DNA of 64,000 nt. It comes from a phage. Shown piece after piece: positions 2,688 to 61,350 of the stretch. Below the pieces are notes generated by a model, which saw nothing but the letters and a program-made list of their open reading frames with translations, was not told where the DNA came from and ran no database searches. The position numbers and the translations under genes are program-made. The stretch is taken from the sequence record PZ049338.1; one strand, 5' to 3'. Numbering within the stretch: the first letter of the stretch is position 1; each line of letters begins with the position of its first letter.

Positions 2688-2757
2688 ATTAGTCACCTTG
2701 TCAGTTAAGTAATACTAATAAAGCCCATCATATAGATAGGCTTGATAGTGTCACTTG

Positions 2758-13546: not shown

Positions 13547-13559
13547 TAGGAGTTAGTCC

Positions 13560-15490: not shown

Positions 15491-15502
15491 GGAGCTAATA
15501 AA

Positions 15503-16735: not shown

Positions 16736-16754
16736 GAGCCTTCGGGCTCTTTTC
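16735..16754 (+). terminator. intrinsic terminator (AGAGCC ttcg GGCTCT + TTTTC)
   Basis: hairpin with UUCG loop and T-run directly after stop codon. Confidence 0.65.
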
Positions 16755-16770
16755 TTATAGGAGAATAGAA

Positions 16771-17631: not shown

Positions 17632-17642
17632 GGAGAGATTAG

Positions 17643-18197
17643 ATGGCTACTAACGCCTACTTAGAGCGCATGAATCAGCTCCGTTCAGAAAGACGTCAAG
17701 TTAAAACTAGACAGTTAGAAGAAATGGGTGTTCCGATTCGTCGCCCAGAACAACATAGTAATTATAATGGTGCTTCACCTTCAGGTGTTCCTACTGGAGA
17801 AGCTCCTATCCCTCAAGAAGATGAATCATACAAAGACTCCCACTTCTATAATGCGTTTGAAGGTTATAAACAGCGTGATGAGAAGTTTGGTAGTGTCATT
17901 GATGAACTCACTGAGTTAGCTACAGGTCTTCGTGAGCAGGTTAAACTAGGGTATATGCCTGAGCAAGTTGCTCGTCAACGATTGACACAATTCGTAGGTG
18001 ATACTCAACAGCAATTTGTACGTGCTAAGCCTCAACTGGAAAAAGAAAAGCAGAATAAGCAAATGGAAGCAATGTTAGGTGTATTAACTGGTGTTACACA
18101 GCAACAGCAGATGCAACAGCAGCAAGCCAAAGCTAACGAGCCTATCCCAGCAGAGGGTATTTCAGCAGAAGAAGCACAACAAAGGGGAGGTTGGTAA
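17643..18197 (+). CDS. hypothetical structural protein (184 aa)
   Basis: ORF track; AAGGAG SD. Confidence 0.45.
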   Translation: MATNAYLERMNQLRSERRQVKTRQLEEMGVPIRRPEQHSNYNGASPSGVPTGEAPIPQEDESYKDSHFYNAFEGYKQRDEKFGSVIDELTELATGLREQVKLGYMPEQVARQRLTQFVGDTQQQFVRAKPQLEKEKQNKQMEAMLGVLTGVTQQQQMQQQQAKANEPIPAEGISAEEAQQRGGW

Positions 18198-19840
18198 TGG
18201 CTGATTCTAACAGCCTGTCATTTGGTGCTCTCGCACTGAATACTGGCATTAATAATTTAAAGAAGGTTGTTAATCCTGTTATTAACACCTCTCTCGCTGA
18301 AAATGATTTCAAAGAGCAGAATGGTCGGTATCCAAACTCTAAGGATGAGTTGAATACTTTTATCAAGCAGGGTGGTCAATCTGAACGTGACCGTCGTAAT
18401 CCTGCTCCAACTCCTGCTCCTGCACAAGCGGCTCCAGAACAAGCTCCGGGTGAACCATTTAACCCATCTAGTCTGTTAGTTCCAGTGCAGAAACATCTTC
18501 CTACTCAACAGACACCTGATAGTGCTCAGGATAAGGCCGCACAGCAACGTGGGGCTCTTAATCAGCAAGCACAAGGCAAAGCCCAAGCTGTTGCGAAAGC
18601 ACGCTCACAGGGCTACCAGGACGTTCCTAATGCTGCTCAAGACCCAGCGGGTAACTTAGCTGCTCGTAACGCTAACAAAGCTGCTGGTGTGGGTGGTACT
18701 TCTGGTGAGATTAACTTTAATAAAGAAGGCGAAGTACCTTCTCCTCAACAAGCTCAGAACATGCAGCTTGACCAATTGGGTAAGAAGACAGCCTTCAATA
18801 TGGATGATATGCCTGAGTGGTATGAGTCTAATTCGTTTAACTATGGACTCATTTCTTTTGGTCTCAATCTGTTATCTGGTAACGATTTGGCTACCTCTTT
18901 TGGTGCCGCTGGTGAAGCTTTCTCTTCTATGTATGGGCAAGAGCGTCGTCAGATGTGGGCGCAAGATTTGATTAGTCAGGGATATTCCCCTACAGAGGTT
19001 GAAGAGTACATCCGTACTGGTAAGTCTGACGTATTGACCGACCCGATGGAGAAACAGGCTAAGCAGATTCAAATGGCTACTGGTTTGGCTAATCTGGAAG
19101 CTATTCAGTACGAGAACTCTGATGAAGAGCGTCAGTACAAGAAAGACCAAGATAAGTTTGAACGTGATATCAAGATTCAGCAACTCAATGATTCCCGTGC
19201 TGCTCGTGCTGAAAGTGCTGCCCTCCGTCGTGAACAGATGGCTATCAATCAGGAGGAAAGAGAGTTACGTCGTCAAGAGCGTGCTGAGAAAGCTGCTGCG
19301 AAGGGTCAGGAGTATAAAGAAAGCTTGGCTAAGGCTGAGAACTGGTATACCCGTGCTCGTCAAGGTTATAAGAACTACGAAGATACAGTTAAGAGTTATG
19401 GTGGTGTTAACAACATTTACTCCGATAGTGCTTTAGGTAAGATTACTCAGGCTGCACTGACTGATGCTGTGTTCTCTGGTACCTCTGTCAAAGAAGCTGT
19501 TTCGAAGGGTGTTGACGAGAAGTTCGTTACCACTGTTAACCGTGAACGTGAGTTCTTGGCTCCTCTGCTCCGTAAGGACTCTGGTGCTGCAATCTCTCAA
19601 TCTGAATGGAAAACTACGGGTGAGATTTACTTCCCACGTCCGGGTGATACCCAGCAAACGATTGACCAGAAAGCTCAATCTCGTGTTGTAGCAATGTTGG
19701 CAACCAACCCTCATGCATCTGGTGAACTCCGTGGTGCAGTTGATGCTTACACTCGTGGTGAGATTTCCTCTCTCCGTGAGAAAGGTGGTCGAGTTTATGC
19801 TCAATTACCAGACGGAAGGTGGTTGGAAATCCAACAATAA
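18197..19840 (+). CDS. virion protein (about 547 aa)
   Basis: start moved to ATG 18197 (GGGGAGG SD; TAATG overlap). Confidence 0.5.
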   Translation: MADSNSLSFGALALNTGINNLKKVVNPVINTSLAENDFKEQNGRYPNSKDELNTFIKQGGQSERDRRNPAPTPAPAQAAPEQAPGEPFNPSSLLVPVQKHLPTQQTPDSAQDKAAQQRGALNQQAQGKAQAVAKARSQGYQDVPNAAQDPAGNLAARNANKAAGVGGTSGEINFNKEGEVPSPQQAQNMQLDQLGKKTAFNMDDMPEWYESNSFNYGLISFGLNLLSGNDLATSFGAAGEAFSSMYGQERRQMWAQDLISQGYSPTEVEEYIRTGKSDVLTDPMEKQAKQIQMATGLANLEAIQYENSDEERQYKKDQDKFERDIKIQQLNDSRAARAESAALRREQMAINQEERELRRQERAEKAAAKGQEYKESLAKAENWYTRARQGYKNYEDTVKSYGGVNNIYSDSALGKITQAALTDAVFSGTSVKEAVSKGVDEKFVTTVNREREFLAPLLRKDSGAAISQSEWKTTGEIYFPRPGDTQQTIDQKAQSRVVAMLATNPHASGELRGAVDAYTRGEISSLREKGGRVYAQLPDGRWLEIQQ

Positions 19841-19855
19841 TATTGGAGATGATAA

Positions 19856-22800
19856 ATGAATTTTGTGACTGACCCTAAATTGCTTGAGGAGTTAAACGCA
19901 GGATTCAATCCACAGGGGGCTTCGGCCCCTTCGGTTGATTCCCAAACTCAAACCGCTCCACAGGAAGCAGAAACTAACTGGGGTATTTACGCTAAAGAAG
20001 ATGGTTCCATTATGGACACTATCGGTTCTGGTTTGACCAGGATGGGGCGTGCTACCGCAGCAGCTATGGTTCCTAGTGATGATGAGGACATGTCGGATTA
20101 CGCATTAGCTCGCGCTCGACGTGCTAACGCAGAGTACAAAGCTGATGCTGAAAAGCTTGGTGTTGCAGGTCAGGTAGTTGCAGGTGCTGCAACATATGCC
20201 CCTGTTATTGCCGCTGGTATTGCTAACCCTCTGGCAGGTGCTGCTATGATGGGTGGTGCTACTACTGCTGACTCTCTTGCTGCACAGATTGATAACAATC
20301 AAGATTTAGACCTTAACAGTGCAATTGCTGCCGGTGCTGCATCAGCAGGTGTCGACCTTGCTACAATGGGACTCGCCTCTCGTGGCATGAATGTTGCTAA
20401 GGAATTAACATCCCCTGTTAAGCGTGCAATTGCCGGTACTGGTATACAAGCAACTCAGGGTGCTACTTCTAACGCAGCAGCTCAAGCTGCTATTAACTTA
20501 GCATCTGGTCGTCCTTGGAATGAAGGTCTGATAGAAGCTGCTGCCATTGGTGGTGTTGCAGGTGGTGGTTTACATGCTACCCTCTCTGGATTGAACCACT
20601 CTGCAGGCACTCCACCTAATAAGGGTGGTCAGAAGGCTACAGAAGACCAAGTTAAGTTCGAAACCAAAGATGGGATTACTCCTACGGGTGATTATCGTAA
20701 TCAAGTGTACGAATACGCAAACCAACGTCACCAGTATGATGAAGACATTAACAACATCGACATTGATGATACTAATGGTTTGGATGCCGCTGTAAATGCT
20801 AAAGTAGGCATGGCACTTAACAACGGTACTGCCTCTGCTATTCAGGGCACTGCTAAGCTGTTAGATAAGTTTAAAGTACCTAAGACTATTAACTTCTGGG
20901 ATATGGATGTTGGTAATGGTATCAGTAGCCAACCTGTTGGTAACATAGCTCGCGATTGGTTCAATTTCAGTGACAAAGACCTGTTGAAAGCTGGTGAATC
21001 TATTGGCCGTGCCAAGCAGACATTGACTGGACGTACCAAAGCACTGGAACAGGGTGAGTTTGAGGAATCCTTCCTTCGTCAGATGAAAGACTCTTACGAT
21101 AAGGCCCAAAACGACATCTTAGGGCGTGCAGAATCCAACTGGCGTACCGTCGATAACATTCGTTCACAAATGACCGGTGCAGAGCGTCCTATGCGTGATT
21201 CTCTGAATATCCTGTCTCGTAACCTTGAAGACTACTCTAAGATGGTACGTGATGCCAACTTAGGTAAAGCCCCTAACACCGATACTCTCCGTGCTGTTGT
21301 AGAAAGCATTGAAGTTAATGCTAAGAAGACTGGACTTCGTGACAAGCTGAAATCTCTTGTAGATGACGCTGAGCAGTTTGATGGTATCACAAACTTAGAG
21401 TCTGCACTGTTGTTTGCAAAAGGTGCTCAGAAGGTTGCTCCTGGCATCCATCGTGCTAACCCTGACCCACTGAAAGCATCAAGCCAGAAGGCTGATATGC
21501 TGGATGCTGCTGCTGTTGCAACAGGTCAGTTCTGGTTACCTGTGGCTCGTCGTGGTCTTCGTGAGATTGGCGGTAAACGTTCTCAAGCTCGTTTGCGTGG
21601 TGAGAAGGCTCAAGGTGAAGTTGTTTCTCAATCCTTGGCTCGTGACCCACGTCCTGATTTTGTTAACCAAGCTGCTCAGCGTGGTGATTTCAAAGGTGCT
21701 GCTGATGAAGCTGCTGCTGATTTGGAATCAATGGGTATTTCTACTGGTCAGAAAGATGTATGGGGTCGTGAAGCCGAGGCTGCACCTGTACAAGAGACTG
21801 CACCAATCCAAGAAGCCCCGGTTACTCCGGAACCTAAAGTCGATGTTTGGGGTCGTCCTCGTGAGTTCACAGACCTGACTGGTCGTGGAGTACGTGAGGC
21901 AGAAGCAGCTAAGGCTGAAGCAGAGGCCGCTAACGCACCTGTGGTAGACCCAGAAGCAGAAGCCCAGATAAGGTTCAACCTTGGTGAAAGACTCGCTCAG
22001 GATGCTCGTGTGGACGCTCAGAGACGTGCTCCTGCACCAGAACCTGAACCTGCATTCACGGATAAAGACTCTCGTCGTGTAGATGACTTGCAAACCAAAC
22101 AGAACACCGATGGTTTAACATCCTCTGAAGCTCGTGAACTTGAGTCACTTATTCAGCGTAAGCCTACGCCTGAAGTTAAGGAAGCAGAACCTGAAGCCCC
22201 TAAGAAAGAAGGTGTTAAAGCTTCTGAACTGGCTCGTAAACCCATCTCTGATAAGATTAAAGAGTTCAAGGAGTTGTCTCCTGAAGCTAAGAAAGACCCT
22301 CAACTGATTAACGAGTTTACTCGTAACAGACGTCTTCTCTCTGATGCTGATAAAGCTGTATCCTCTAAGGCTACTGCTATGTCTGTTCCTCAGGAAGATA
22401 TTTGGAGAATCATTGAACGTCAAGGTGGCTTGGAGTCTGTATTTAAGGATGGTCACTCTGCTGAACGTGGTCTGAATATTCTTATGCAGAAAGATAAGAT
22501 TGACTTGCAACGTAAAGCTGATATCGAAGCTAAGAATGCCGAAGATGCCGCTGACAGTGTTAATACTAAATCAGGGAAAGGTGAGACAACCTCTACTGAT
22601 GAAGTTGATACTGGAAAGGTAATCGAAGACATGAAGAAAGACTTCATCTCTAAAGGTGTTTCTGGTGAGACATTTGAAGCTGCACAAGTCCGCGCTGAAC
22701 AGACCCTTGGCCCAGATTATACACCAACGCAGTTAGCTAACGTTGTTAAATTACTGGCAAAAGAGAAAGCGGCTAAGGCTCGTGAAGAAGCTAAGAAGAC

Positions 22801-32275: not shown

Positions 32276-33049
32276 TTAGAACGGGCAATCGTCGTCAAAA
32301 TCCAGACCTTCATCTGGTTTATTGGTCGGCTTATTGTTACCGTACTTCTGTTCTTCACGAGTAGTGGTATTCTTTGGCTTTTCACCATCACCACTGTCGG
32401 CAATTGGTTCTTTGCCTGCATACGGAATGTGTTGTGCATCTTTAGCTTCTGCAATCACATCACGCTGGAATTTGTAAAGCTTGGAGTATGCTTGCAGCAT
32501 CTCAGGGGTATCAATGTAAGGGTTATATGCTACCAGTTCTGAACGTGCTTCACCAACTTTGGACTTGTTTCGAGAAGAAACAGCACCAATGGAAGTCACT
32601 TTGTTACGCTTCACACCTTTCTTCGTGGTATAAGAACCAACACCGATTGAAACAACTTCATTCAGGCGTTCCATGAACCACTCGAGATTACGAGGAACTT
32701 CGGTAATAGTTGGGTCAATTGCTTTACAGAGGTCGAATACACCACCACGTTTAGCACCGGGGAAGAGGTAGAAGTCTTTGAACTGACAGGAAGGGCGAGG
32801 GTCGATAGGCTTACCGACTTTATCTTCTTCACCTTCGTATGTGCGACCAGTTGCGTCAACGTCAATAAGTTCAAAAGCAATGGTACACTTGAATGCGGGA
32901 GCTTTCGCTTCACCTTGCCAATCTGGTTGAGGCTGAACACCTAAGCCAACAAAGCGAACGATACGTGCGTCGAATACATCATCTTCAATCGCGTCGTATA
33001 CAGTGAAAGATTTTTTAGAAGTGGAAGTAGATGGAATAGCAGTAGTCAT
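32276..33049 (-). CDS. ssb: single-stranded DNA-binding protein with host-SSB-like acidic tail (…DFDDDCPF)
   Basis: C-terminus matches recalled E. coli SSB tip DFDDDIPF. Confidence 0.65.
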   Translation of the reverse strand: MTTAIPSTSTSKKSFTVYDAIEDDVFDARIVRFVGLGVQPQPDWQGEAKAPAFKCTIAFELIDVDATGRTYEGEEDKVGKPIDPRPSCQFKDFYLFPGAKRGGVFDLCKAIDPTITEVPRNLEWFMERLNEVVSIGVGSYTTKKGVKRNKVTSIGAVSSRNKSKVGEARSELVAYNPYIDTPEMLQAYSKLYKFQRDVIAEAKDAQHIPYAGKEPIADSGDGEKPKNTTTREEQKYGNNKPTNKPDEGLDFDDDCPF

Positions 33050-36062: not shown

Positions 36063-36524
36063 TTAGTTACAATACCTTCCATTATGATTCCTTAATCGGT
36101 AATAAATTGCGGATTCAGTTCTGCCCAATCGTGCAGCTATAGTTTTAACAGGAACACCTGCTCTCCACATCTCAAAGCAATCGTCATGACTTTCTCTGTA
36201 ACGATTTACGTTTGTTTCAGTAGCATGTTCAGAGCCTTCAAGAATTTCAAGGTGTTCTGGGTTACAGCAAGCCCTGTTCCTGCATTTGTGATTAATCTCA
36301 CAACCTTCAGGGATTGAGCCGTTAAGTTCTTCCCACACTAACCTGTGGTACATCACCCAAGTATTTTTACCAATATTCTTGCGGAAGTACCCATCACTGT
36401 TAAGTTTATGAGAAACGGGGATTTTACACCCCGTATTAGTAATATCAAATACAAGTTTCTTTGGCATATTCAATGGGTATGGAACCAGCTTGCACCAAGC
36501 ATTGAGTCTGAAGCTAATGGACAT
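36063..36524 (-). CDS. HNH homing-type endonuclease
   Basis: INHKCRNRACCNPEHLEILEGSEHATETN HNH-like core; overlaps 3' end of polymerase gene. Confidence 0.65.
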   Translation of the reverse strand: MSISFRLNAWCKLVPYPLNMPKKLVFDITNTGCKIPVSHKLNSDGYFRKNIGKNTWVMYHRLVWEELNGSIPEGCEINHKCRNRACCNPEHLEILEGSEHATETNVNRYRESHDDCFEMWRAGVPVKTIAARLGRTESAIYYRLRNHNGRYCN

Positions 36525-38314
36525 TCCATATTCAACGACTCTCCAGCTTTTTTAACACACTGGTCAATCAACTCTCTTAATTTAACTACATCTTTGGTGG
36601 CGCAAGTGAACTGCATCTCATCGTGCATCATAATGACCTGATTTGCAAACAGCTTATCACGTTTAACCCAAGAAATCAGGTAGCAGTCAGCAATCTTCAT
36701 AACAATAGAACCAGCAGACTGGAGCATTGTATTCAGTGCTTTATGGGTCATCACCTCACCGGAGTTAGGGTCACGACGCATAATCAACTTACGACCATCA
36801 ATAGCTGGAACCCAACCATGTTTCGCTGCGAATGTTTGTACCCACTCCATAAGAACTGGAATACAAGGACATTCTTTCAGGAACTTATCACGAGCTTCCT
36901 GACCTTCGGCAACACCACCACCTAACTGAGCACCTAAGTTCGCATTACCAGCGCCATAGAGGAAAGCATAGATAAACGTCTTAGCCTGCTTACGAGTTGC
37001 TAGACCTGCAAGCTTCTGGTTGTGCGAGTGGATATCACCATTCAGAAGAACTTCACGATACTCTAGAGCGGAGTCGAGTGCTTTCTGATAATACTCAGCC
37101 TCTCGTGTCTTACCAGCTTCGAGAGCTTCCTCAAGCAGCATACGAGATACAGCAATGAGGTAGTGAGTAAGCATACGAAGTTCAAGACCTGCACCATCCC
37201 CACCTACGAAAGCCTGTTGGCCCTCTGGGATAAGGTATGTACAGTGTCCTACATCTTCCCACTTCTTACCATTGAACTCCTGCATGATGTTAGTCAGTGG
37301 CTTACGACGAAACTTGCCAGACTCAATCATTTTCTTGGTGAGCTTAGGAACCAGAATGCCACGACGACCCATCTCAGAGTCACAGTAGTCACCCTTAAAT
37401 AAGTGACGACATTCTTCACCCAGCAACGCACCAGCAGCAGGAATGTTAACAATTGTCTTGTGACGCATACGAGCAGTTGGTGTAGCGCATGGGTTGGCTT
37501 CACCAGACAGCTTACCATCAGCACGTACTTGAGCAATCAAACCTTCTAAGAGGGAACGACGATGCGCAAGCTGCATACGATGCTTCAAGAGCGTCAATGC
37601 CTGACTCTCATCCTCACCAACTGAATCAAAAGAATCATCAGTGATTTGTGGAGAAGTCGGCCAGAACTGTTTCAGTAGAAGTTTCTTCTTAATGGCATCG
37701 AAGTTAGGAACCTTTCTGCTCAGGTCGAAACCTAAAGCAACCAGAATTGCCTTCATGTAACCCTTCGTCTGGTCACGGAAGTGTGTATCAATAAACCCGT
37801 TAACAGCGTTGGTGAATGCAAGTCTGTCCTCAGAATCACACTGTTCATTGATGAACTTAGCGTATGAGGTTTTCTCCAAACGTTTGCGATACTGCCAAAC
37901 TTGGAAAGGTGTCTTCTTCTCGTTCCACTCAGTAGGAACCCAACCCATATCCATCATGACTTTCTTCAGTCGAGATGTTTTACCAGGGTCGAATGGTGTA
38001 TACCATACAGCGGAGAATGGCCCACTAACATCTTCAGAAGAGAGTCCATGAATGTCCATGTACTTCTGAACGAATGCTTTAGGTTGACCGTTCAACTTAA
38101 ACGGAGCTTTATACTCTGAACCCTTGTGCATCATAGGAGGAAGCAAAGGGATTAATTCGAGGTCAATCTTGAGGATACGCTCATTCAATGAGTGAACCAA
38201 CCAAGAAGCACCACGCTTATCAAAGTTACAGCCATGTTTCCACTGATTCGAAATCAAATCAGCGACTTTCTGTTCTAACAGGAATGGTTTAGTCCAATCC
38301 GGCTTGATATCCAT
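36470..38314 (-). CDS. family A DNA polymerase, polymerase domain only (614 aa)
   Basis: motif A DGAGLELR, motif B RKQAKTFIYAFLYG, motif C HDE; no 3'-5' exo motifs in this ORF. Confidence 0.85.
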   Translation of the reverse strand: MDIKPDWTKPFLLEQKVADLISNQWKHGCNFDKRGASWLVHSLNERILKIDLELIPLLPPMMHKGSEYKAPFKLNGQPKAFVQKYMDIHGLSSEDVSGPFSAVWYTPFDPGKTSRLKKVMMDMGWVPTEWNEKKTPFQVWQYRKRLEKTSYAKFINEQCDSEDRLAFTNAVNGFIDTHFRDQTKGYMKAILVALGFDLSRKVPNFDAIKKKLLLKQFWPTSPQITDDSFDSVGEDESQALTLLKHRMQLAHRRSLLEGLIAQVRADGKLSGEANPCATPTARMRHKTIVNIPAAGALLGEECRHLFKGDYCDSEMGRRGILVPKLTKKMIESGKFRRKPLTNIMQEFNGKKWEDVGHCTYLIPEGQQAFVGGDGAGLELRMLTHYLIAVSRMLLEEALEAGKTREAEYYQKALDSALEYREVLLNGDIHSHNQKLAGLATRKQAKTFIYAFLYGAGNANLGAQLGGGVAEGQEARDKFLKECPCIPVLMEWVQTFAAKHGWVPAIDGRKLIMRRDPNSGEVMTHKALNTMLQSAGSIVMKIADCYLISWVKRDKLFANQVIMMHDEMQFTCATKDVVKLRELIDQCVKKAGESLNMECPLASDSMLGASWFHTH

Positions 38315-38417
38315 ATCTACCTCAACATTACTAGCCGTACACCTGACGAATCAGTTGGGAGTTAAGTCGGCATTCGTAGTTATCCTTGCCGCCTCCGAAG
38401 AGGCAGCGATGTAGGTC

Positions 38418-38684
38418 TTAGTTAGCCCACTTAGTAAATCGACCGGTATTCAAATCACGTACAACGACGTTGGTTCGGAACAACTCTTTGAGTTCTTCTT
38501 TAGCCTTCATCAGTTTTTGTTGTTTGTAAATCTTACCAACCTGAATACGTGTAGGTTCGTCATTCGTTTCAAACAGAATCTTAATGTCCTTGCTGACAAG
38601 CTCAGGAAGAGTCCTATAAACTGCTGAAGATATGAAACGACCTTTGGTAGTGTATTCACGGTACTCGATAACTAATTTACTCAT
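38418..38684 (-). CDS. hypothetical protein (88 aa)
   Basis: ORF track. Confidence 0.45.
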   Translation of the reverse strand: MSKLVIEYREYTTKGRFISSAVYRTLPELVSKDIKILFETNDEPTRIQVGKIYKQQKLMKAKEELKELFRTNVVVRDLNTGRFTKWAN

Positions 38685-38935
38685 TTTGCTGCTCCATTAG
38701 CATTAGGGAAATAACGTTCATAATTTCTTGCGTGGTTAGTTTCCAACTTAGCCACACATTGACGACAGAATGGATACAATCCACTGTCAGAGTTCGCAGA
38801 TTCATCGAAGTGATAAACCCCACGAAGTTGTTTACAGCACTTGCAAGTGATGCACTGGCCGTAAGTTGTTCTTGCGTAATTGTTAATTAAACGCTTAACC
38901 ATGTCCATTAGGACTCCAGAGACAAAAAAGGCCAC
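38681..38935 (-). CDS. Cys-rich hypothetical protein (84 aa)
   Basis: ORF track. Confidence 0.45.
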   Translation of the reverse strand: MAFFVSGVLMDMVKRLINNYARTTYGQCITCKCCKQLRGVYHFDESANSDSGLYPFCRQCVAKLETNHARNYERYFPNANGAAK

Positions 38936-39044
38936 CCGTAGGCAGCCTTGTGTTAACCTTCACCCCAGCCCGTATTAGAATCCATCGAATTCATCATACG
39001 TCCCAGTTCTCTTCACCAGCAGTGTAACCAATTGCATTCATTCG

Positions 39045-39401
39045 TTAATCCTTCTTCTTCTTGCTCTTAGGCTTGCTCACAGGTAAACGGGACTTAGCGC
39101 CCTTACGTCCACCTGCGGCCTTACCTTTTGAGCTACCAGACTTACCACCAGCAGACATATTCTCGCTGGCATCACGTAAACGCAAATTACTGCGGTCATT
39201 GGAGCCACCATCTTTAACTGTCTTCTTGTGGTCAACGTGTACAGATGTTGGCAATTTTCTACCGATGCTCTTTTCCATCTCTCGACGGGCACGGTGTCGC
39301 ATTGCATCCTTAGACTTCTTACCAACGCCGGTATCACCACGCTTTATAGCAGTGATACGTTCTTGTGCGTAGTTTCGTACATAACCCGGTGAACTAGGCA
39401 T
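39045..39401 (-). CDS. basic protein with HNH-like motif (HVDHKK...GGSNDRSNLRL)
   Basis: motif read by eye; candidate small HNH nuclease. Confidence 0.45.
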   Translation of the reverse strand: MPSSPGYVRNYAQERITAIKRGDTGVGKKSKDAMRHRARREMEKSIGRKLPTSVHVDHKKTVKDGGSNDRSNLRLRDASENMSAGGKSGSSKGKAAGGRKGAKSRLPVSKPKSKKKKD

Positions 39402-39413
39402 TCAACCTCCATG

Positions 39414-39629
39414 TTAATCAGAGCATGAACGGGTGACCCCTCGCTCTCCAACTGGTGCGCGTTCTTTTGCTTGCCAGTCTTGTGCGAGTTTTTGATAATT
39501 CTCAGCTTCTTCCACATTGCCATTTGCATATGCTTCATCACGCATTGAAAAACACCAGTCAACCGTTGATGCGTTACTCTTGTCCATTATAATCACCCCA
39601 TTCGTATTCATATTCGTCGAAACGTTCAC
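39414..39629 (-). CDS. small hypothetical protein (start uncertain)
   Basis: ORF track; alternative frame 39344-39562 overlaps neighbour. Confidence 0.3.
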   Translation of the reverse strand: MNVSTNMNTNGVIIMDKSNASTVDWCFSMRDEAYANGNVEEAENYQKLAQDWQAKERAPVGERGVTRSCSD

Positions 39630-39795
39630 CCGGCATTGTTTCTTTACAACACGGGCATATGTAATAGTGTGAATAGTCCTCAGTGCTTACGCGTTTCATG
39701 GGAACAAAACACCAATCACATTCAATACTTTTCACACCGTACATAATGAATACCTTATTTAAGACTCTTCTCAACTCTACGAGTAATATACTCAC
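39574..39795 (-). CDS. small Zn-ribbon protein (73 aa)
   Basis: CDWC...CPCC. Confidence 0.45.
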   Translation of the reverse strand: MSILLVELRRVLNKVFIMYGVKSIECDWCFVPMKRVSTEDYSHYYICPCCKETMPGERFDEYEYEWGDYNGQE

Positions 39796-40024
39796 GAGCT
39801 ACTTTAGGATTACATTCCATTAAGAGGTCTTCAACATCTTCGTTGATTTCACTCTTCGTTACAGTTAACTGATGAAGATACTTACCCTGAATAATCATTG
39901 CAATCTGCAGAGCTTCATCAAAACTTGATTGATTGACAGCCTCTTGTGAGGCCATAACTGATTGGATGATTTGGTTTACATCAAATTCAACCAAGGAGCC
40001 ATCATCTTTCTGATATTTTACCAT
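39755..40024 (-). CDS. hypothetical protein (89 aa)
   Basis: ORF track. Confidence 0.45.
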   Translation of the reverse strand: MVKYQKDDGSLVEFDVNQIIQSVMASQEAVNQSSFDEALQIAMIIQGKYLHQLTVTKSEINEDVEDLLMECNPKVAREYITRRVEKSLK

Positions 40025-40032
40025 TCACTACC

Positions 40033-40482
40033 TCAGCGACCAGAGCGTACAAAGTATGCCAGCTTGTCGATGGCAGCTACTAATTCTTGCAAGATGCTAA
40101 CAGTCACATCATCCTCTGTATCAAACAGACGAGCCACATGACCAGTTATTGTTTCCAGAGTTTCGACCATATCAGACAACATCTCTGAACTGTCGTAGCT
40201 GTCAACACCTTCACTGAACCAGCGAACTTCATGATAATACCCTGCCGTTGATTTGACAGGATGCTGTAGGCCACGTAGCCGCTCAGCAACAATATCAGAC
40301 CATTCATCAGCAACAGTATCAATATCTTCGAACAGTTTATGGAGACTTCCAAAGTTGGCTCCGGTTACGTTCCAATGATAATTCTCTGCCTTGATGGACA
40401 GTAATTTGAGGTTGGCAACCACTGGATTCAATGGGTGCAGATTATCTTCACCACTTTGACGTGACGGTCTTGGAGATAACAT
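40033..40482 (-). CDS. Dps-like ferritin-fold protein
   Basis: YHWNVTGANFGSLHKLFEDI and DIVAERLRGL align by eye with recalled E. coli Dps (HWNMRGANFIAVHEML, DTMAERAVQLGG). Confidence 0.6.
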   Translation of the reverse strand: MLSPRPSRQSGEDNLHPLNPVVANLKLLSIKAENYHWNVTGANFGSLHKLFEDIDTVADEWSDIVAERLRGLQHPVKSTAGYYHEVRWFSEGVDSYDSSEMLSDMVETLETITGHVARLFDTEDDVTVSILQELVAAIDKLAYFVRSGR

Positions 40483-41138
40483 TACTCAGTTTCCTTAATA
40501 GTTGCTTTCAAGGCCGACCAAGCGACCGGATAAAGGTCAGTCATGATTGCATCAAGTTGCTGTGCAAACAAACGAACCTCGTATTGAGCATGAGTGCTCG
40601 AACGTTGACGGTATACTTCAAACCAACCATACAGTGAACCAGTCCATACCCATTCTGTAACCATCCCTTGCGGGAGTACAAAGCGAGCCTGCTCTGGTGC
40701 AATGAACTTAATCAGCTTATCGTAGGCAAGTAATGCTGCTTCATATGCGTAATTATACAACACAAGAGCTTCATATTTCTTAACACCTTCAAGAAGTACA
40801 CCACCGCCATCATGCAAGTTATCAGGTCGTGCAAAGATTTCCTTAGGAATGAACACTTCGACATTACCATCTTTATATCGACGGCTCATTTCGTTCCAAG
40901 AAAATCCAACCTGATGCTTACCTAGCTGGCGAGCGATTGCGATTGGGGCTTTACAGCGAAGGGTCACTGTTGCGTGCCGGAATGGGGTTACATGACGTTC
41001 ACGAGCTAAGAACTTGACCAAGCGAACATCTCGCTCATTCAACTCACCTTCTCGTGTTACACCATAAGATACTCGTGCTGCGTTAACAACTGAAGTATCA
41101 TCACCCATTAAATCTACTAATTGCGCTTCAATAGTCAT
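40482..41138 (-). CDS. thyX: ThyX-like flavin-dependent thymidylate synthase homologue (signature appears divergent)
   Basis: ARQLGKHQVGFSWNEMSRRY resembles ThyX motif region, but canonical RHR seems replaced by KHQ. Confidence 0.6.
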   Translation of the reverse strand: MTIEAQLVDLMGDDTSVVNAARVSYGVTREGELNERDVRLVKFLARERHVTPFRHATVTLRCKAPIAIARQLGKHQVGFSWNEMSRRYKDGNVEVFIPKEIFARPDNLHDGGGVLLEGVKKYEALVLYNYAYEAALLAYDKLIKFIAPEQARFVLPQGMVTEWVWTGSLYGWFEVYRQRSSTHAQYEVRLFAQQLDAIMTDLYPVAWSALKATIKETE

Positions 41139-41152
41139 CCTTGACCCTTATA

Positions 41153-41362
41153 TTAATATTCGATTTTACTTAAAATGAAAATAGCACCATCAGGTGTTAT
41201 ATTAGCCTTATGCATTGACACTTTAATGTTATGCTTACGGGCAGGTATGAGGTTTTTCAACCCTGCACGGGCTTCTTTTCTTGTTTTATAAGTCATTAAC
41301 AATGGTAAGTCGTCTGACTTATCTTTATTAAGAAGCTTGAGTACCCAAATCCATTGAGACAT
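41153..41362 (-). CDS. small hypothetical protein (69 aa)
   Basis: ORF track. Confidence 0.4.
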   Translation of the reverse strand: MSQWIWVLKLLNKDKSDDLPLLMTYKTRKEARAGLKNLIPARKHNIKVSMHKANITPDGAIFILSKIEY

Positions 41363-41371
41363 GATTGTACC

Positions 41372-41557
41372 TTAAATATGTTCGAAATCTTTACGAGTGG
41401 CTTCACGAATATAGAAGCCTTTATAGCCATGACTTGTTGCTAAATCATGTGCTATCTTCTTTGTAGCACAGATAGCCATAAGGCAACCCTGCACGACAAT
41501 AACATGGGCACGTAGTTCACGTTCCATTAACTGTATTCCATTTCTGTTGATTGACAT
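41372..41557 (-). CDS. small hypothetical protein (61 aa)
   Basis: ORF track. Confidence 0.4.
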   Translation of the reverse strand: MSINRNGIQLMERELRAHVIVVQGCLMAICATKKIAHDLATSHGYKGFYIREATRKDFEHI

Positions 41558-41702
41558 TCATTACATCGGGTTTTCTTTACAGTAATCTCGACATATTGTT
41601 TGTTCTTCCCACGAGAAGGAGAGCCTTTCTTAAGCTCTCGAATCTTCGTATAGGAAATGTTAAGCTCTATTCCAGAGCAGGTTGGACATCTCACTATTCA
41701 CC

Positions 41703-41945
41703 TCAGTAATTGTAAGGGTCGTAGTCCAAAGAATCAAACCCGTAATCTGAACTATCAAGATAGCGACCCGGAAAACCCATTCGCTGATAAGTTGGTTCGC
41801 TAGGGATGGTGTTACCACGAGTGATTTTCTTAACTTGGTCAGAGGAGAACAAAGCTAATCCTTCAGAGGTTCGGGCCGAAGCCCGTTCCCCTTTCTTGAC
41901 AACCTTACCCTTCTTTAACCAATCTTCGAAGGAGCGGTATTGCAT
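41703..41945 (-). CDS. hypothetical protein (80 aa)
   Basis: ORF track. Confidence 0.45.
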   Translation of the reverse strand: MQYRSFEDWLKKGKVVKKGERASARTSEGLALFSSDQVKKITRGNTIPSEPTYQRMGFPGRYLDSSDYGFDSLDYDPYNY

Positions 41946-41947
41946 GG

Positions 41948-42163
41948 TTATTTACCCCAATGTTCAACAAACTGTTGAAACACTTTACGGTCGAATGTGA
42001 AATTACGAGCAATATTACATTCAACAAAAGTAGAGCCCATATAGTCTATAGACAATTCATCAGTGTGACCGTGAACTTGGATAAGGCGTTTAATCTTATC
42101 CTTCTCCTTCCGAGGTAACATACGGAATGCTTCCTGTATGTCTGTAATATGCTTAATTTTCAT
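41948..42163 (-). CDS. hypothetical protein (71 aa)
   Basis: ORF track. Confidence 0.45.
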   Translation of the reverse strand: MKIKHITDIQEAFRMLPRKEKDKIKRLIQVHGHTDELSIDYMGSTFVECNIARNFTFDRKVFQQFVEHWGK

Positions 42164-42429
42164 CAGCGAGTCTCTTCTAAGTCTCGGTTAACACCCACAT
42201 TACCATCAAGGTTAGCCTGCACTTGAGCAGAAATAACAATCAGGTTCTTAGGGTAGGAGAGGGTTGTTTTACCAGAGCTAAGCACATGGATTCGAACTTT
42301 CAGAGGAGTAACATCCACAACTCGGGCTATTTCTAGCCCTTGGTTGTATTTACCATTACCCCAGACAACAATATCGTCCAGTCGAATCACCCGGTGCAGC
42401 TTATCACGGTGATTGTGTGACAGTAACAT
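42163..42429 (-). CDS. hypothetical protein (88 aa)
   Basis: ORF track. Confidence 0.45.
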   Translation of the reverse strand: MLLSHNHRDKLHRVIRLDDIVVWGNGKYNQGLEIARVVDVTPLKVRIHVLSSGKTTLSYPKNLIVISAQVQANLDGNVGVNRDLEETR

Positions 42430-42719
42430 TAATCAAGACCTCGCACTGTAGAGAGGATGAAATTACGCAGCATGTCTTCAGTCTGCATCCCTGTTTTGAA
42501 ACCTACTGGCTTCTTGTTTTCATCAAACACGATGATGGTTGGGACACCACGGATGCCAAAGGTACGAGCTTCTTCGCGTACTCCGTCGTCTTCGATGCTA
42601 CGGGATTCAAAAGTAAATCCCTCTTCTTCCAGTTCATCTTGAACTTTCTTGAAGATAGGCTCGATTGCTTTGCAAGGAGCACAGGAAGTACCAAAGTATT
42701 TAATTACAGAGTAAGCCAT
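42429..42719 (-). CDS. thioredoxin
   Basis: CxxC active site SCAPC in thioredoxin-sized (96 aa) protein. Confidence 0.75.
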   Translation of the reverse strand: MAYSVIKYFGTSCAPCKAIEPIFKKVQDELEEEGFTFESRSIEDDGVREEARTFGIRGVPTIIVFDENKKPVGFKTGMQTEDMLRNFILSTVRGLD

Positions 42720-43477
42720 TATTCACCACCTTCGTTGTCTAATTCCATTGCTTTAACCACTGCCTTACAGAAGCCGCTTCGAACGATATCGTCAGAAGTA
42801 CCTTCAACAACAGCAGCATAGTCGCCCAGAGCGTGACGGTTGATAAAATCAATCGCCCAATCCAGACCATTTTCACCACCCATATCATTCTGCTCGGAAT
42901 CCCCGATACAGAACAGCTTAGAGTTCTCACCCAAGCGAGTCATGATTGAGTACATTTCATCAGGTTTGGTATTCTGAGATTCATCCACAATGACCACAGC
43001 GTTCTCGAAAGAACGACCACGAACATATTCCAGTGGTACGAATTCAATGTTACCAAGACCCATCTGGCACTCATAGAAGCCATGACCGTAACGACCTTTG
43101 ATTACATCTACCATAGGCATCAGATACGGTTCAAACTTCTCTTTCAGAGTGCCGGGCAGGAGACCAAGAGATTTACCCATACCAACCGAAGGTCGGCTCA
43201 GTACAATCTTCTGAATCTTGTTCTGCTTAAGCCAATCTGCGGCTTGACTCATGAGTACAAAAGTCTTACCGCAACCAGCAGGAGCGTCAACAAACACAAC
43301 CTGAGCTTCCATCATGCTAGTATGAAGTTCACGTTGGAACTCATTCTTAGGGATGATAGGCTTGATAATGTTTGCTGTCTCAAACTCACGACGAGCGTGT
43401 TGGCTATTACGACGAACAGTTTCTTCGCGCAGTGCTTCACGACGTAATTCACGACGACTAGGCTTAAGTTTCTTCAT
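42719..43477 (-). CDS. phoH: PhoH-like ATPase
   Basis: Walker A DAPAGCGKTF; overall PhoH-like pattern. Confidence 0.75.
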   Translation of the reverse strand: MKKLKPSRRELRREALREETVRRNSQHARREFETANIIKPIIPKNEFQRELHTSMMEAQVVFVDAPAGCGKTFVLMSQAADWLKQNKIQKIVLSRPSVGMGKSLGLLPGTLKEKFEPYLMPMVDVIKGRYGHGFYECQMGLGNIEFVPLEYVRGRSFENAVVIVDESQNTKPDEMYSIMTRLGENSKLFCIGDSEQNDMGGENGLDWAIDFINRHALGDYAAVVEGTSDDIVRSGFCKAVVKAMELDNEGGE

Positions 43478-44081
43478 TATTCAACTCCTCAGTGTGACCA
43501 GAGCCAGCATATGCTTGAGTAGCACCCTGCTGACCGTTGTAGTTACCTTTAACAGCGTAAGAGTCGTTACCAACGTCTTCGTGTTCAAAGAATACCATCT
43601 GACCAATGCGCATACCGGGTTTGATAAGGAGTCGGTGATACTTGTTCATATTCTTGAACTCCATAGTAAGCTGTGCGCCATGCCAACCGGCATCTGCCCA
43701 ACCTGCCATCATGTGTTCAAGGAAGCAACGAGCCACTGTAGAACGTAATACAAACTGACTGGAGATAGTATTTGGTAAGTTAAATGTCTCAACAGAGTGA
43801 GCCAAGAAACACTGACCCGGTTCGATAATCAAACCAGTCTCAGGGATAATCTGTTTGATGAACTTAGGAGATTGCTTTGCAGCAATATCAATCGGTTCAG
43901 AATGAACACCCGGAACAGCTTCAGCCATACCAGAAAGGTCTTGGTATTGCCATGCAGGGGCTTCGACCAGAATCTCGTTACCAATACGGATATCAATACT
44001 CGCTGAGTTTACGTTCTCATGCAGAGCGTCAATAACATTTTCATCAATCAGTTGGTGCAATCGTGTAGAAGAGAGTAACAT
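43464..44081 (-). CDS. dcd: dCTP deaminase
   Basis: SIDIRIGNE, RSTVARCFL, KPGMRIGQMVFFE, YNGQQGA align with recalled E. coli Dcd. Confidence 0.75.
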   Translation of the reverse strand: MLLSSTRLHQLIDENVIDALHENVNSASIDIRIGNEILVEAPAWQYQDLSGMAEAVPGVHSEPIDIAAKQSPKFIKQIIPETGLIIEPGQCFLAHSVETFNLPNTISSQFVLRSTVARCFLEHMMAGWADAGWHGAQLTMEFKNMNKYHRLLIKPGMRIGQMVFFEHEDVGNDSYAVKGNYNGQQGATQAYAGSGHTEELNNEET

Positions 44082-44264
44082 TAACTATCCTTAGTCTTCG
44101 TCGTTGTCGTTAAAGCGGAATGGGTCGGAGCATTCAATTACCCCAGCGTCTTCGTCTAAGCGAAAGGTCATTCCTGCAATTTCAAAATCGGAGTCCATCA
44201 TGTGTTATTCCTTAACAAGAGGCCACACTTATTATAGTGACCTCTAGAGAGTATCCTTACACCG

Positions 44265-44762
44265 TTATTTGTAAAAGATTCTGCTATGTGGAGGATTCAA
44301 CCAATCAAATCCAGCCAGATTGCAAAGATGCTCATACAAAGCAACGGTAACATTTACGTCCTGCTCACAGTAAGTGAACATGTCTTCAGTGAACACATCC
44401 CAAGCATTCTCTGTCTTGCCATAATCGCCTTTATAGATACCAAGCTCACGACCCCATGAATCCAGTGAATGACCACCGGGGCGGTCAGGCTGGAGCATAC
44501 GGCTGAGAACTAAGGTATCAAAGGTGTTCATGTGGAATTCAAGACCACTGAGTTTAGCCAGAGTCGGGAGGTCATAATCAATGATGTTATGGCCAACCGT
44601 TAAATCGAAGGACATTAAATCCTTCATATACTTGTCTAAATCTTGTGGTCTATAACCCTGTCGCTCTTTCGGTTGACTAGGGTCAATAATCCAGGCACAG
44701 TGAAATTTGGAGACATCAATATAGAGATTGTTAGTCTCTATATCTGTACAAGCAATCTTCAT
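44265..44762 (-). CDS. DnaQ-like 3'-5' exonuclease (stand-alone polymerase proofreading domain)
   Basis: Exo I DIET, Exo II HNIIDYD, Exo III YCEQD. Confidence 0.7.
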   Translation of the reverse strand: MKIACTDIETNNLYIDVSKFHCAWIIDPSQPKERQGYRPQDLDKYMKDLMSFDLTVGHNIIDYDLPTLAKLSGLEFHMNTFDTLVLSRMLQPDRPGGHSLDSWGRELGIYKGDYGKTENAWDVFTEDMFTYCEQDVNVTVALYEHLCNLAGFDWLNPPHSRIFYK

Positions 44763-44771
44763 TAATACACC

Positions 44772-46568
44772 TTAGAATGGTCGACTATCATCACGACTGA
44801 CTTCATCAGAGTCAGGCTCCTCTCCCGGGATAGAGAAAGGATTCTTAGGGTCATACTCATCAGCAGTACGCTGTCTCAATCGACCTGTAACTGGGTTATA
44901 GGAAGTTGGGACAATACCTGTCTGACCGAAGTTACGGTCTTTCAGGAGACGAATCTGAGACAAGTTACGAGCATCACCATCTGCCTGCTTGTTACGCTCA
45001 AAGCCCAGAATTAACTGGGAGAATCGCATAAGAGCACGCGAACCTGTGAACTGCACTTCCTGAACCTGACCACCTTCCTCGTGCGGAGCACCAGTTTTAG
45101 GTGGGTTCAAGTGACTGAATACGAAACATGTGAACTCCAGTTCGTTACACAGTCCAGCCAGTTCTACAGCAATACGAGCAACTTCGGTGTTAATCTCAGT
45201 CGCTGATAAGTGTGATACCAGTGCGGTGATGTTATCTAAGAAGATGAACTTCACACCATGCTCCACAACCCAGAAACGCATACAGCGTTTGATATCTTCC
45301 CAATCATTCTGACCAAAGTTCCGGTAAAGGAACAGATGGCCATCATACTTCAGAGCTTCACTCTTAAGCAGTTCAGGGTCGAACTCAACATCTGGGCGAT
45401 GGAAAGGTATATTAGCAGATTTACCTGCGATGTTTTTGATTGTGTTACCTACAGTCTCTTCCAACATGAAAGCGCCCACTTTCTCTTTGTGGACGTTAAT
45501 GAGGTGAGCACTAAGTTCGTGAGCAAGCAGTGTTTTACCACCACCCACACCACCACCAATTGCAATCACTTCACCATATCGGAGACCGAAGGTTAACTCT
45601 GTAAGACCTTCCCAAGGGAATGATAAACCCCACTCAGGCTTCTTCAGCGCATCTTCCAGACACTCAGCTACAGTCGTTGAGCCAGCCGGAGATTCTTTTG
45701 CAGCATTGAAGCGTAAGCAGTTATTAAGTTCGAGGTCACGACCGTCCATGAGGAGGTCATTAGCGTCCTTAATTGGAGCACCATCTTTACGGAACCCTTT
45801 AGGGATTCGGGCAATCTTAATGTTCGGATACATCGCTCGAATCTTGTTCACAGCATCATCACCAGCTTCATCGTTATCCATGCAGACAACAACTTCAGCG
45901 AATGATTCTACGAATGCACGGTCACGAGAGAACGCAGCCGCTGCTGATTTCGAGCCATCCGGTAAAGAAACACATGCTGGTTTGTATGTACTCTTAGAGT
46001 TCTCTGTCAATACCTGAAAACCAGACATTGCACTGAGTTCGTCTTCAAATACAAACAACTTACCTGTGTACACATCACCAAGACGTGCTTGGGACATACC
46101 GAAGAAACTACAACCTGATGCTGCACCTACAGCATAAAAACCTTTAGGTTCTAAGGTGCGAACTTTGTAAGCACGGATTGCTCCGTCCTTTTCCTTCGGG
46201 TAAAACTGAGAGATAGGTTCCCGGTTAGTGGATGAAAGACCAATACGAACACCAAAACGTTCGGCAACTTCTTTCTTCACACCACGAATGGTGCAGTTCT
46301 GAATAGGAAGCTCTTGGACTTCCGCTAAACGTTCTTGTACTTCTTCCTCGGTCAGTTCACGGAATTCATGACGAACTCCTTCCCACTTCTCGCGGTTACC
46401 TTCTTCAACCTGTTCGTAAAAACCATCACGACTACAGTAAACCCACTGCTCGCCGGTCTCAACATTTTCCCAATGCTGAAGATGGTTGCCAGTTCGGTCA
46501 TGGCCTGCTGCCGTACAGGTTGGACATGCAGAATCACCAAGGATTCTTTTGTTTCCATAAACTTTCAT
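44772..46568 (-). CDS. primase-helicase (Zn-finger + TOPRIM + DnaB-like helicase)
   Basis: N-terminal CPTC Zn finger, TOPRIM-like CMDNDEAGDD, Walker A GGGVGGGKT. Confidence 0.8.
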   Translation of the reverse strand: MKVYGNKRILGDSACPTCTAAGHDRTGNHLQHWENVETGEQWVYCSRDGFYEQVEEGNREKWEGVRHEFRELTEEEVQERLAEVQELPIQNCTIRGVKKEVAERFGVRIGLSSTNREPISQFYPKEKDGAIRAYKVRTLEPKGFYAVGAASGCSFFGMSQARLGDVYTGKLFVFEDELSAMSGFQVLTENSKSTYKPACVSLPDGSKSAAAAFSRDRAFVESFAEVVVCMDNDEAGDDAVNKIRAMYPNIKIARIPKGFRKDGAPIKDANDLLMDGRDLELNNCLRFNAAKESPAGSTTVAECLEDALKKPEWGLSFPWEGLTELTFGLRYGEVIAIGGGVGGGKTLLAHELSAHLINVHKEKVGAFMLEETVGNTIKNIAGKSANIPFHRPDVEFDPELLKSEALKYDGHLFLYRNFGQNDWEDIKRCMRFWVVEHGVKFIFLDNITALVSHLSATEINTEVARIAVELAGLCNELEFTCFVFSHLNPPKTGAPHEEGGQVQEVQFTGSRALMRFSQLILGFERNKQADGDARNLSQIRLLKDRNFGQTGIVPTSYNPVTGRLRQRTADEYDPKNPFSIPGEEPDSDEVSRDDSRPF

Positions 46569-60597: not shown

Positions 60598-61350
60598 TTA
60601 CGACTGGATAATGCTTTCTTGAGCCAGTTCATCTTTCACCTGTTTAAGTGTAAATGTATTGTCGTCACAATCAATACCAATAGGGCCGATAATACGGTAT
60701 TTAGTATTGCGAGTTTCAACAAAGAAAGTACCAACCTTCTCAGAGATATTTACTACACGGGAGGTACTGATTGACAACCCATCACGGAAAGGGTGATTTC
60801 CGTGAGTGTGGGTATCGCTCCAGATTCGACCAGTCATGTACCAGTTGCTATCATTGGACTTGTAAATGATAGCAGATGACAGTTTGGCGTCGAATTGTGG
60901 AATTGGTAATGGGACATAACCTTCACGCAGTATCGGATTTTGTTCATCCGGCATTTGAGTGAAAGGCTTCATCTCAAACATTATTTCAAAGTCACGAGCC
61001 CATTGGCGAATCCGTTTTGGATTTAAACCATTGACACGTTTGAAGTAACCCTGCTGATGTTCAGCACTGATTAATTCATATGACAAATCCAAATCCGTAC
61101 GATGAACAGTGGAACACATCATCATAAGGTATTCATGACGACCACACCACACGTAAAGAAGATGTCCAATCTCCTCTTTAGTGAAATCTGTCGCTTCCGC
61201 CAGACGGTCAGTGATACCAAGCGCCAGTGGTTCAGGGAAACGCTTGTAGAAAAGGATTGGGAACTTCTCAATAAGTTCCGGCATACGACGCTTATAGAAA
61301 TCGTACTGAACAGGGGTAACAGGGCGAAGTTTTACGCGTTGAGTTGTCAT
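60598..61350 (-). CDS. ProQ/FinO-domain-like RNA-binding protein with C-terminal extension
   Basis: LIEKFPILFYKRFPEPLALGI...LLYVWCGRHEYL...DLD resembles recalled ProQ/FinO N-terminal pattern. Confidence 0.5.
   Translation of the reverse strand: MTTQRVKLRPVTPVQYDFYKRRMPELIEKFPILFYKRFPEPLALGITDRLAEATDFTKEEIGHLLYVWCGRHEYLMMMCSTVHRTDLDLSYELISAEHQQGYFKRVNGLNPKRIRQWARDFEIMFEMKPFTQMPDEQNPILREGYVPLPIPQFDAKLSSAIIYKSNDSNWYMTGRIWSDTHTHGNHPFRDGLSISTSRVVNISEKVGTFFVETRNTKYRIIGPIGIDCDDNTFTLKQVKDELAQESIIQS

Follow-up and report, generated by a model that had tools for sequence, protein, structure and literature searches.

A predicted T7-type DNA polymerase encoded by two distant genes in a Grimontviridae phage, with a phage thioredoxin gene between them

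We analyzed the DNA polymerase genes in a 64,000-nucleotide stretch of phage DNA (sequence record PZ049338.1; hereafter, the window). The window covers the greater part of a Grimontviridae phage genome and shares ~96% identity with the Grimontviridae phages PKM.Lu.22.1 and PKM.Hi.22.6. These closest relatives are plasmid-dependent Salmonella phages. Its family A DNA polymerase is predicted to be encoded as two halves of a T7 gp5-type enzyme, a stand-alone 3'-5' proofreading exonuclease (Exo) and a polymerase subunit (Pol), the genes for which are far apart on the same strand. This two-gene arrangement is real, but earlier work has described it for this phage group. Our overall reading, to which we assign a probability of roughly 0.85, is a two-gene T7-type polymerase that goes back to an ancient, known fission, together with a separately acquired homing endonuclease gene and a phage thioredoxin that is a conserved member of the replication module. 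A first-pass annotation of the sequence had proposed separate polymerase and proofreading genes, a thioredoxin gene between them, and an HNH endonuclease gene at the polymerase 3' end. This layout was confirmed for all four open reading frames (ORFs), which lie on the minus strand with the thioredoxin gene between Exo and Pol.

The exonuclease and polymerase genes and their distribution

The two polymerase genes are as follows.

44265..44762, minus strand: stand-alone 3'-5' proofreading exonuclease (Exo), 165 amino acids, corresponding to residues 1 to about 200 of T7 gp5 (Pfam, PDB, PHROG, AlphaFold2 (AF2))
36470..38314, minus strand: polymerase subunit (Pol), 614 amino acids, equivalent to approximately T7 gp5 residues ~206-704 (Pfam, phmmer, AF2, Foldseek, PHROG)

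The Exo protein matched the Pfam family DNA_pol_A_exo1 (PF01612) at 30 bits (cutoff, 23.6) and fell into PHROG families named 'DNA polymerase exonuclease subunit'. The only PDB sequence matches were to T7 gp5, with gp5 residues 3-186 aligned to Exo residues 5-147. The AF2 model had a predicted local distance difference test (pLDDT) score of 97.3, and all of the 27 best PDB fold matches to it were T7 gp5 chains. The catalytic motifs were Exo I (DxE, D7/E9), Exo II (NxxxD, N59..D64), and Exo III (YxxxD, Y131..D135). Over 48 stand-alone homologues, D7, E9, and D64 were invariant, and Y131 and D135 were nearly so. Among the best 150 cluster representatives of Exo homologues, the top 17 were all stand-alone proteins, and 56 were 210 amino acids or shorter. 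The protein had been labeled DnaQ-like in the first-pass annotation; its coordinates and its three motifs hold, but the label is loose, as the sequence assigns Exo to the DEDDy (YxxxD) exonucleases of family A polymerases. Membership in the DnaQ/epsilon (DEDDh) family was rejected.

For Pol, a Pfam scan detected DNA_pol_A only, at residues 439-611. Its best PDB sequence matches were to T7 gp5 (phmmer E value, 6e-36), Pol residues 97-613 aligning with gp5 residues 323-703, and the top 27 PDB fold matches to the AF2 model (pLDDT, 91.2) were all chains of the same protein (Foldseek E value, 1e-25). Motif A (D373), motif B (R441/K445/Y449), and motif C (H564-D565-E566) were invariant in 89 homologues, and Tyr449 occupies the position of T7 Y526. 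No exonuclease motifs were detected in the 614-residue ORF, so the N-terminal 3'-5' exonuclease domain that a T7-like polymerase carries in the same polypeptide is absent from Pol. The ORF is maximal, has no in-frame upstream extension, and starts at approximately gp5 residue 206; a hidden exonuclease domain was rejected. The Pfam result, the alignment, and the motif residues thus bear out the initial description of Pol as a polymerase with motifs A, B, and C and no exonuclease motifs. An exact-sequence lookup of the Pol gene of the window matched no contig.

A search of Pol for a thioredoxin-binding loop located an element of ~50 residues (58-107) where T7 has its thioredoxin-binding domain. 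The element is shorter than the T7 domain, and the part of it that aligns to T7 is confined to the C-terminal half; the alignment of Pol residues 97-137 with gp5 residues 323-363 corresponds to the C-terminal half of the T7 domain. It is followed by a basic, helical thumb insert of ~85 residues (138-222), and further inserts relative to T7 are present at residues 315-365 and 387-414. The 58-107 element and the 138-222 insert are common to the whole clade of exonuclease-less polymerases, LUZ24-like enzymes included.

In a joint alignment, the C-terminus of Exo and the N-terminus of Pol both fell in the inter-domain linker of gp5, at about residues 200-206, which places the exonuclease/polymerase border at that linker. 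On phrog_17, a profile of fused T7-like polymerases, Exo covered positions 670-827 and Pol covered positions 834-1233, that is, adjacent segments. We conclude, from sequence and modeled structure, that Exo and Pol each correspond to one half of a family A polymerase of the T7 gp5 type. For both proteins, T7 gp5 gave the best match by sequence and by fold, the tyrosine at the Y526 position is kept, and the T7 system likewise has a gp4-like helicase partner with an acidic tail ending in Phe. In contrast, T7 gp5 is a single polypeptide with a 76-residue thioredoxin-binding domain and uses host thioredoxin, and Pol has the extra 85-residue thumb insert and the other inserts.

The proposal that the two proteins act in trans is well supported by inference, because the halves are intact, conserved, complementary, and contiguous on one fused profile, are always carried by the same module, and have an arrangement that is maintained across several phage families; the idea is not new. 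In the arrangement we envisage, the Exo gene, directly 3' of the primase-helicase gene, would supply a complete DEDDy proofreading domain, and the Pol gene, 5.95 kb further downstream, would supply the thumb, palm, and fingers. The two proteins may assemble non-covalently into a heterodimer reproducing the gp5 fold, and this heterodimer would then be part of a T7-like replisome with the gp4-like primase-helicase.

We also considered whether splicing, frameshifting, or recombination could fuse the two ORFs into a single protein, that is, whether they are 'two exons'. The UFV-P2 paper terms Exo and Pol 'exons', and polymerase genes of this group do contain introns. However, the Exo stop codon and the Pol start are separated by 5,950 nt containing ~19 genes, several of them for nucleotide metabolism, and these intervening protein genes are independently conserved. 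Exo ends in a stop codon of its own, Pol begins at a separate ATG, their order and spacing (2 to 9 kb) differ among relatives, and no intron was detected in the window with Rfam. A joined product is thus extremely improbable, and splicing in particular was rejected on the basis of the gap size, the separate stop codon and ATG, and the Rfam result.

Homologues indicate that the two-gene polymerase is widespread. The 120 best homologues of Pol were all exonuclease-less and came from Grimontviridae, Kuravirus-like phages (~47% identity), and LUZ24-like phages (~41%). The order primase-helicase, Exo, intervening genes, and Pol recurred in 7-11, SU7, Privateer, GAP52, and UFV-P2. Exo and Pol are closest together in UFV-P2 (2.1 kb apart), followed by Privateer (5.6 kb), 7-11 (~6.7 kb), GAP52 (8.5 kb), and SU7 (~9 kb). 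In 7-11, Privateer, GAP52, SU7, and UFV-P2, the primase-helicase gene adjoins Exo on the upstream side, and the proteins of 7-11 and Privateer are named 'DNA polymerase exonuclease subunit' in RefSeq. The window has the organization of the phiEco32/LUZ24 type, with Exo directly after the primase-helicase gene and a polymerase-only gene kilobases downstream on the same strand.

Compared with the phiEco32/Kuravirus-like phages and the Grimontviridae 7-11, Privateer, and GAP52, the window has the same gene order (primase-helicase, Exo, dCTP deaminase, thioredoxin, ThyX, and Pol), the same protein sizes, and Pol identities of 47-80%, and nothing essential is different. In those phages, the two proteins carry the annotations 'DNA polymerase exonuclease subunit' and 'DNA polymerase I'. 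The window has in addition a free-standing HNH gene that follows Pol, and the ribonucleotide reductase genes of Privateer and GAP52 were not found in it. LUZ24-like Pseudomonas phages, in which the two proteins are called 'DNA polymerase part I / part II', also have Exo directly after the primase-helicase gene and Pol downstream. Their polymerase (~41% identity) retains the greater part of the thumb insert, but it is 546 residues long and lacks residues 387-414, and the spacing is only ~2 kb. For UFV-P2, the portion of the source available to us lists no thioredoxin among the genes between Exo and Pol.

The separation has been stated explicitly before. Glukhov et al. (2012; PMC3517423) reported that all LUZ24-group phages, like phiEco32, encode the polymerase and the proofreading exonuclease in different genes, and a 2023 Kuravirus paper (PMC9965538) described the separation as common to all members of the group and present also in 7-11, Privateer, Vp_R1, and BUCT695. 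Since these two papers state the separation and the processivity idea discussed below is already in print (PMC7881722), the finding is already known. Czernecki et al. (2023; PMC10201439) described an adjacent, frameshift-derived split in S-SBP1-like cyanophages, reported it as the first in family A, and presented an AF2 model in which both products re-form the gp5 fold. As in the window, a T7-type family A polymerase is split there at the exonuclease/polymerase linker and has a shortened thioredoxin-binding domain. In contrast, the S-SBP1-like genes are adjacent and overlapping and arose by a recent +1 frameshift, whereas those of the window are 5,950 nt apart, with ~19 genes between them, and their split is ancient and spans several families. 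The fission is old and is common to Grimontviridae, phiEco32/Kuravirus-like, and LUZ24-like phages; this non-adjacent split is older than the S-SBP1 type and also appeared earlier in the literature.

The HNH endonuclease gene next to Pol

The following features were recognized at the 3' end of Pol.

36063..36467, minus strand: predicted free-standing HNH homing endonuclease, 134 amino acids from the ATG at 36467, with a C-terminal helix-turn-helix (Pfam HNH_3, PHROG 6254)
36470..36614, minus strand: divergent 3' tract of Pol, its last 145 nt (comparison of Pol with that of PKM.Lu.22.1)

The HNH protein matched HNH_3 at 55 bits and had a sub-threshold match to HTH_23 (19.4 bits; cutoff, 24.6). 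Overlap of the HNH and polymerase genes had been noted in the initial annotation, and the mechanically called ORF (36063-36524) indeed shares 55 nt with Pol. Its homology to related HNH proteins, however, begins only at Met20 (ATG 36467), 2 nt after the Pol TGA (36472-36470), so the real gene probably does not overlap Pol, and the overlap is probably an artifact of ORF calling.

The gene was absent from PKM.Lu.22.1, from PKM.Hi.22.6, and from a metagenomic contig with a 98%-identical Pol, all of which share the Exo/Pol split. When the Pol genes of the window and PKM.Lu.22.1 were compared, 43 of the 72 substitutions fell in the last 145 nt, which are ~30% divergent (versus ~1.7% elsewhere) and contain only 7 amino acid changes. 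The divergent tract starts at codon 567, just past motif C, and we interpret it as a co-conversion tract tied to a homing endonuclease.

The HNH protein was 52-70% identical to those encoded inside the polymerase genes of 13a and SU7 (52% to that of 13a). In SU7 (708-3159 of its stretch), the HNH gene splits the polymerase gene between the His and the Asp-Glu of motif C, leaving a C-terminal ORF of 51 residues. In the T7-like phage 13a (448-3163 of its stretch), it lies in the annotated two-piece gene 5, with the intron at H653|D654, the same H|DE site as in SU7. The 13a group I intron HNH gene and that of the window are thus both associated with the 3' part of a T7-type polymerase gene; the former is located in a motif C intron, whereas the latter is free-standing after the stop codon, with the divergent tract just past motif C. 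The HNH motif, the sporadic presence among close relatives, and the flanking co-conversion are the marks of a homing endonuclease. Judged by sequence, the gene appears to be a recently acquired homing endonuclease of a family that elsewhere resides inside motif C of Pol, and it carries the signature of an enzyme targeting motif C, with target cleavage as a prediction. It would have been acquired separately from the split, bringing the divergent 3' segment of Pol along with it.

The suggestion in the first-pass annotation that the HNH gene was involved in the split, either as its cause or as a relic of it, was not upheld. Genes split by homing endonuclease genes do occur in this group; the polymerase gene of SU7, cut at motif C by an HNH gene, is one. 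However, the HNH gene of the window is located at the 3' end of Pol and not at the Exo/Pol junction, it is missing from the nearest relatives with the identical split, and the split is older than the divergence of several phage families. Together with the divergent tract and the homologues inside motif C, these results make a causal role very unlikely, and it was rejected.

Other insertions in Pol genes were observed. The Pol gene of PKM.Hi.22.6 contains a clean 611-bp insertion (3502-4112 of its stretch) in codon F447, within motif B, with the flanking exon sequence intact. The insertion gave a sub-threshold, full-length Rfam match to a group I intron (24.7 bits; E value, 4.7e-4) and carries a frameshifted HNH-like ORF; at gathering thresholds, Rfam returned no match in the window or in the PKM.Hi.22.6 stretch. 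Many metagenomic Pol homologues end at ~445-460 residues, suggesting that the motif B insertion site is often occupied.

The phage thioredoxin

The following gene lies between Exo and Pol.

42429..42719, minus strand: short phage thioredoxin, 96 amino acids, with a CAPC active site and a cis-Pro (Pfam Thioredoxin)

The protein scored 48.4 bits against the Pfam model (cutoff, 23.5) and contains CAPC and VPT, the latter forming the cis-Pro loop. The first ~20 residues of E. coli TrxA, that is, the N-terminal strand and helix, are missing. A single-sequence search for homologues yielded 2 proteins, and a profile search was used instead. The thioredoxin is a member of a distinct clade of short phage thioredoxins (85-100 residues) in the Grimontviridae and Kuravirus-like genomes matched, in which CxPC, the cis-Pro, and the equivalent of TrxA G92 are each at least 90% conserved and a G-R-x-x-P motif is also conserved. 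Compared with TrxA, W28 and W31 are not kept, the buried Asp26 is replaced by Lys, and the G74 equivalent is G, S, A, or Q. Homologues were also found in ~110-kb phages unrelated to this group. Every relative inspected (7-11, Privateer, GAP52, and SU7) kept the thioredoxin gene with or without a ribonucleotide reductase.

One role to be considered is that of a redox auxiliary of deoxynucleoside triphosphate (dNTP) supply, with the thioredoxin donating electrons to host NrdAB, or to a phage reductase in relatives, and having no physical link to the polymerase. The conservation of CxPC (at least 90%) suggests a redox role, and the cis-Pro is also at least 90% conserved. The neighboring genes encode dCTP deaminase, PhoH, ThyX, and an ATP-cone protein; Privateer carries NrdAB and GAP52 carries NrdDG; and the homologues in unrelated ~110-kb phages are consistent with such a role. 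In cyanophage Syn5, the phage thioredoxin is redox-active and enhances DNA replication (bioRxiv 10.1101/2025.10.05.680603). In contrast, no ribonucleotide reductase was detected among the large ORFs of the window scanned with Pfam, and none is annotated in the full PKM.Lu.22.1 record. Kuravirus-like phages have almost none of the nucleotide-synthesis genes of Privateer (PMC7881722). In addition, NrdD-type reductases normally take formate, and a Lys replaces the buried Asp26 of TrxA. We regard this role as having about even odds, which makes it somewhat likelier than that of a T7-style processivity subunit.

In that second role, as the first-pass annotation had also suggested, the phage would supply its own processivity factor: the thioredoxin would bind the thumb element of Pol at ~58-107, the holoenzyme would consist of three phage-encoded subunits, and host TrxA would be dispensable. 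This hypothesis is in print for Privateer (PMC7881722). The alignment of gp5 residues 323-363 with Pol residues 97-137, the occurrence of thioredoxin homologues in Grimontviridae and Kuravirus-like genomes, and the conservation of G-R-x-x-P and the G92 equivalent are all in its favor. The C-terminal tail of the primase-helicase is acidic and ends in ...RDDSRPF (44772-44830), compared with ...WSNDTDF in T7 gp4; acidic helicase tails with an aromatic end are also present in 7-11, Privateer, GAP52, and SU7, and a T7-like acidic tail ending in Phe was found on a 257-residue protein described below.

However, the Pol loop is ~26 residues shorter than that of T7 and is predicted by the model to be ordered on its own (pLDDT, ~90), and the same loop is conserved in LUZ24-like polymerases, although Pseudomonas was not among the ten commonest host genera of the thioredoxin matches. 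The G74 equivalent is variable, and the thioredoxin lacks W28, W31, and the N-terminal strand and helix of TrxA. CxPC is conserved even though T7 needs no redox chemistry, and the basic, helical 85-residue thumb insert could give processivity alone. Furthermore, the Syn5 thioredoxin is not predicted to bind the thioredoxin-binding site of its polymerase (bioRxiv 10.1101/2025.10.05.680603). On this mixed evidence, a processivity role seems possible but less likely than not. A complete T7-type holoenzyme of the phage's own, in which Pol works with the separate Exo and with a truncated thioredoxin dedicated to clamping onto a remodeled thumb, independently of host TrxA, is slightly less probable still.

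Some points weigh against our overall reading. The thioredoxin gene persists in phages without a phage ribonucleotide reductase, the present one included, which fits a processivity role as well, and so do the T7-type polymerase and the gp4-like helicase tail with its acidic, aromatic end. In addition, Exo could in principle work as a free exonuclease, its association with Pol being a prediction.

The replication module and its significance

From 46568 down to 36063, the minus strand carries a tightly packed module of replication and nucleotide-metabolism genes in the order primase-helicase, Exo, dCTP deaminase, PhoH, thioredoxin, small ORFs, ThyX, Dps/ferritin-like protein, ATP-cone protein (89 residues), a small HNH-like protein, two small ORFs, Pol, and the HNH_3 endonuclease. 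The remaining annotated members are as follows.

44772..46568, minus strand: bifunctional primase-helicase, T7 gp4-like, 598 amino acids (Pfam DnaB_C and Toprim_2)
43464..44081, minus strand: dCTP deaminase (Pfam DCD, 114.6 bits)
42719..43477, minus strand: PhoH-like ATPase (Pfam PhoH, 184 bits)
40482..41138, minus strand: ThyX, flavin-dependent thymidylate synthase (Pfam Thy1, 144 bits)
40033..40482, minus strand: Dps/ferritin-like protein, 'DNA-binding protein' in the annotation of relatives (Pfam Ferritin; PHROG 3636)
39755..40024, minus strand: stand-alone ATP-cone protein, 89 amino acids (Pfam ATP-cone PF03477, 35.7 bits; cutoff, 25.8)

The position of the ATP-cone gene corresponds to a full NrdD gene in GAP52 and an NrdD fragment in Privateer. 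In a phage with no detected ribonucleotide reductase, this protein is a relic or else a regulatory domain with a new use. Between Pol and Exo, a very basic protein of 118 residues (39045-39401) showed a weak HNH match (PF01844, 19 bits, below the cutoff). Because PKM.Lu.22.1 and PKM.Hi.22.6 have an ORF of the same size at the equivalent position, this HNH-like gene is not a recent insertion. An endonuclease VII gene is located between the primase-helicase gene and Exo in PKM.Hi.22.6 (11900-12265 of its stretch) and 7-11 (11599-12015); it is missing from the window and from PKM.Lu.22.1 and adds to the variable nuclease insertions of the replication module.

Outside the module, a 257-residue protein (32276-33049) has an acidic tail with a terminal Phe, ...DFDDDCPF (32276-32330), that resembles the tail of T7 gp4. 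The C-terminus of T7 gp2.5 is similar to the gp4-type acidic tail. The 257-residue protein matched nothing in the PDB or Pfam, and our guess is that it is a gp2.5-like single-strand-binding protein. Another protein, of 250 residues (60598-61350), contains a ProQ/FinO RNA-chaperone domain (37 bits). FinO regulates F-plasmid transfer, and the domain is notable because the closest relatives of the phage depend on conjugative plasmids.

At positions 13375-13381, the window lacks 8.96 kb that are present in PKM.Lu.22.1 (13246-22204 of that record), including the end of the capsid gene and a 962-residue 'tail formation protein'. The junction has a 7-nt microhomology, TGACTGG, and yields a fused ORF of 321 residues (12581-13546). 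The absence reflects either a deletion variant or an assembly collapse.

As a discovery, the two-gene polymerase means little, since separate exonuclease and polymerase genes and a conserved thioredoxin have already been annotated and discussed for phiEco32-like, 7-11-like, and LUZ24-like phages. Split polymerases of the non-adjacent kind are, however, far older and more widely distributed than the adjacent split of the S-SBP1 type described in 2023. These phages offer a natural system for investigating how proofreading and polymerase subunits assemble and hand over the primer, whether a phage-encoded thioredoxin can replace the host factor, and how homing endonucleases switch between locations inside introns and free-standing ones around motif C of the polymerase gene. 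If the three-subunit holoenzyme were true, its thioredoxin would be the first phage-encoded one shown to be a polymerase processivity subunit.

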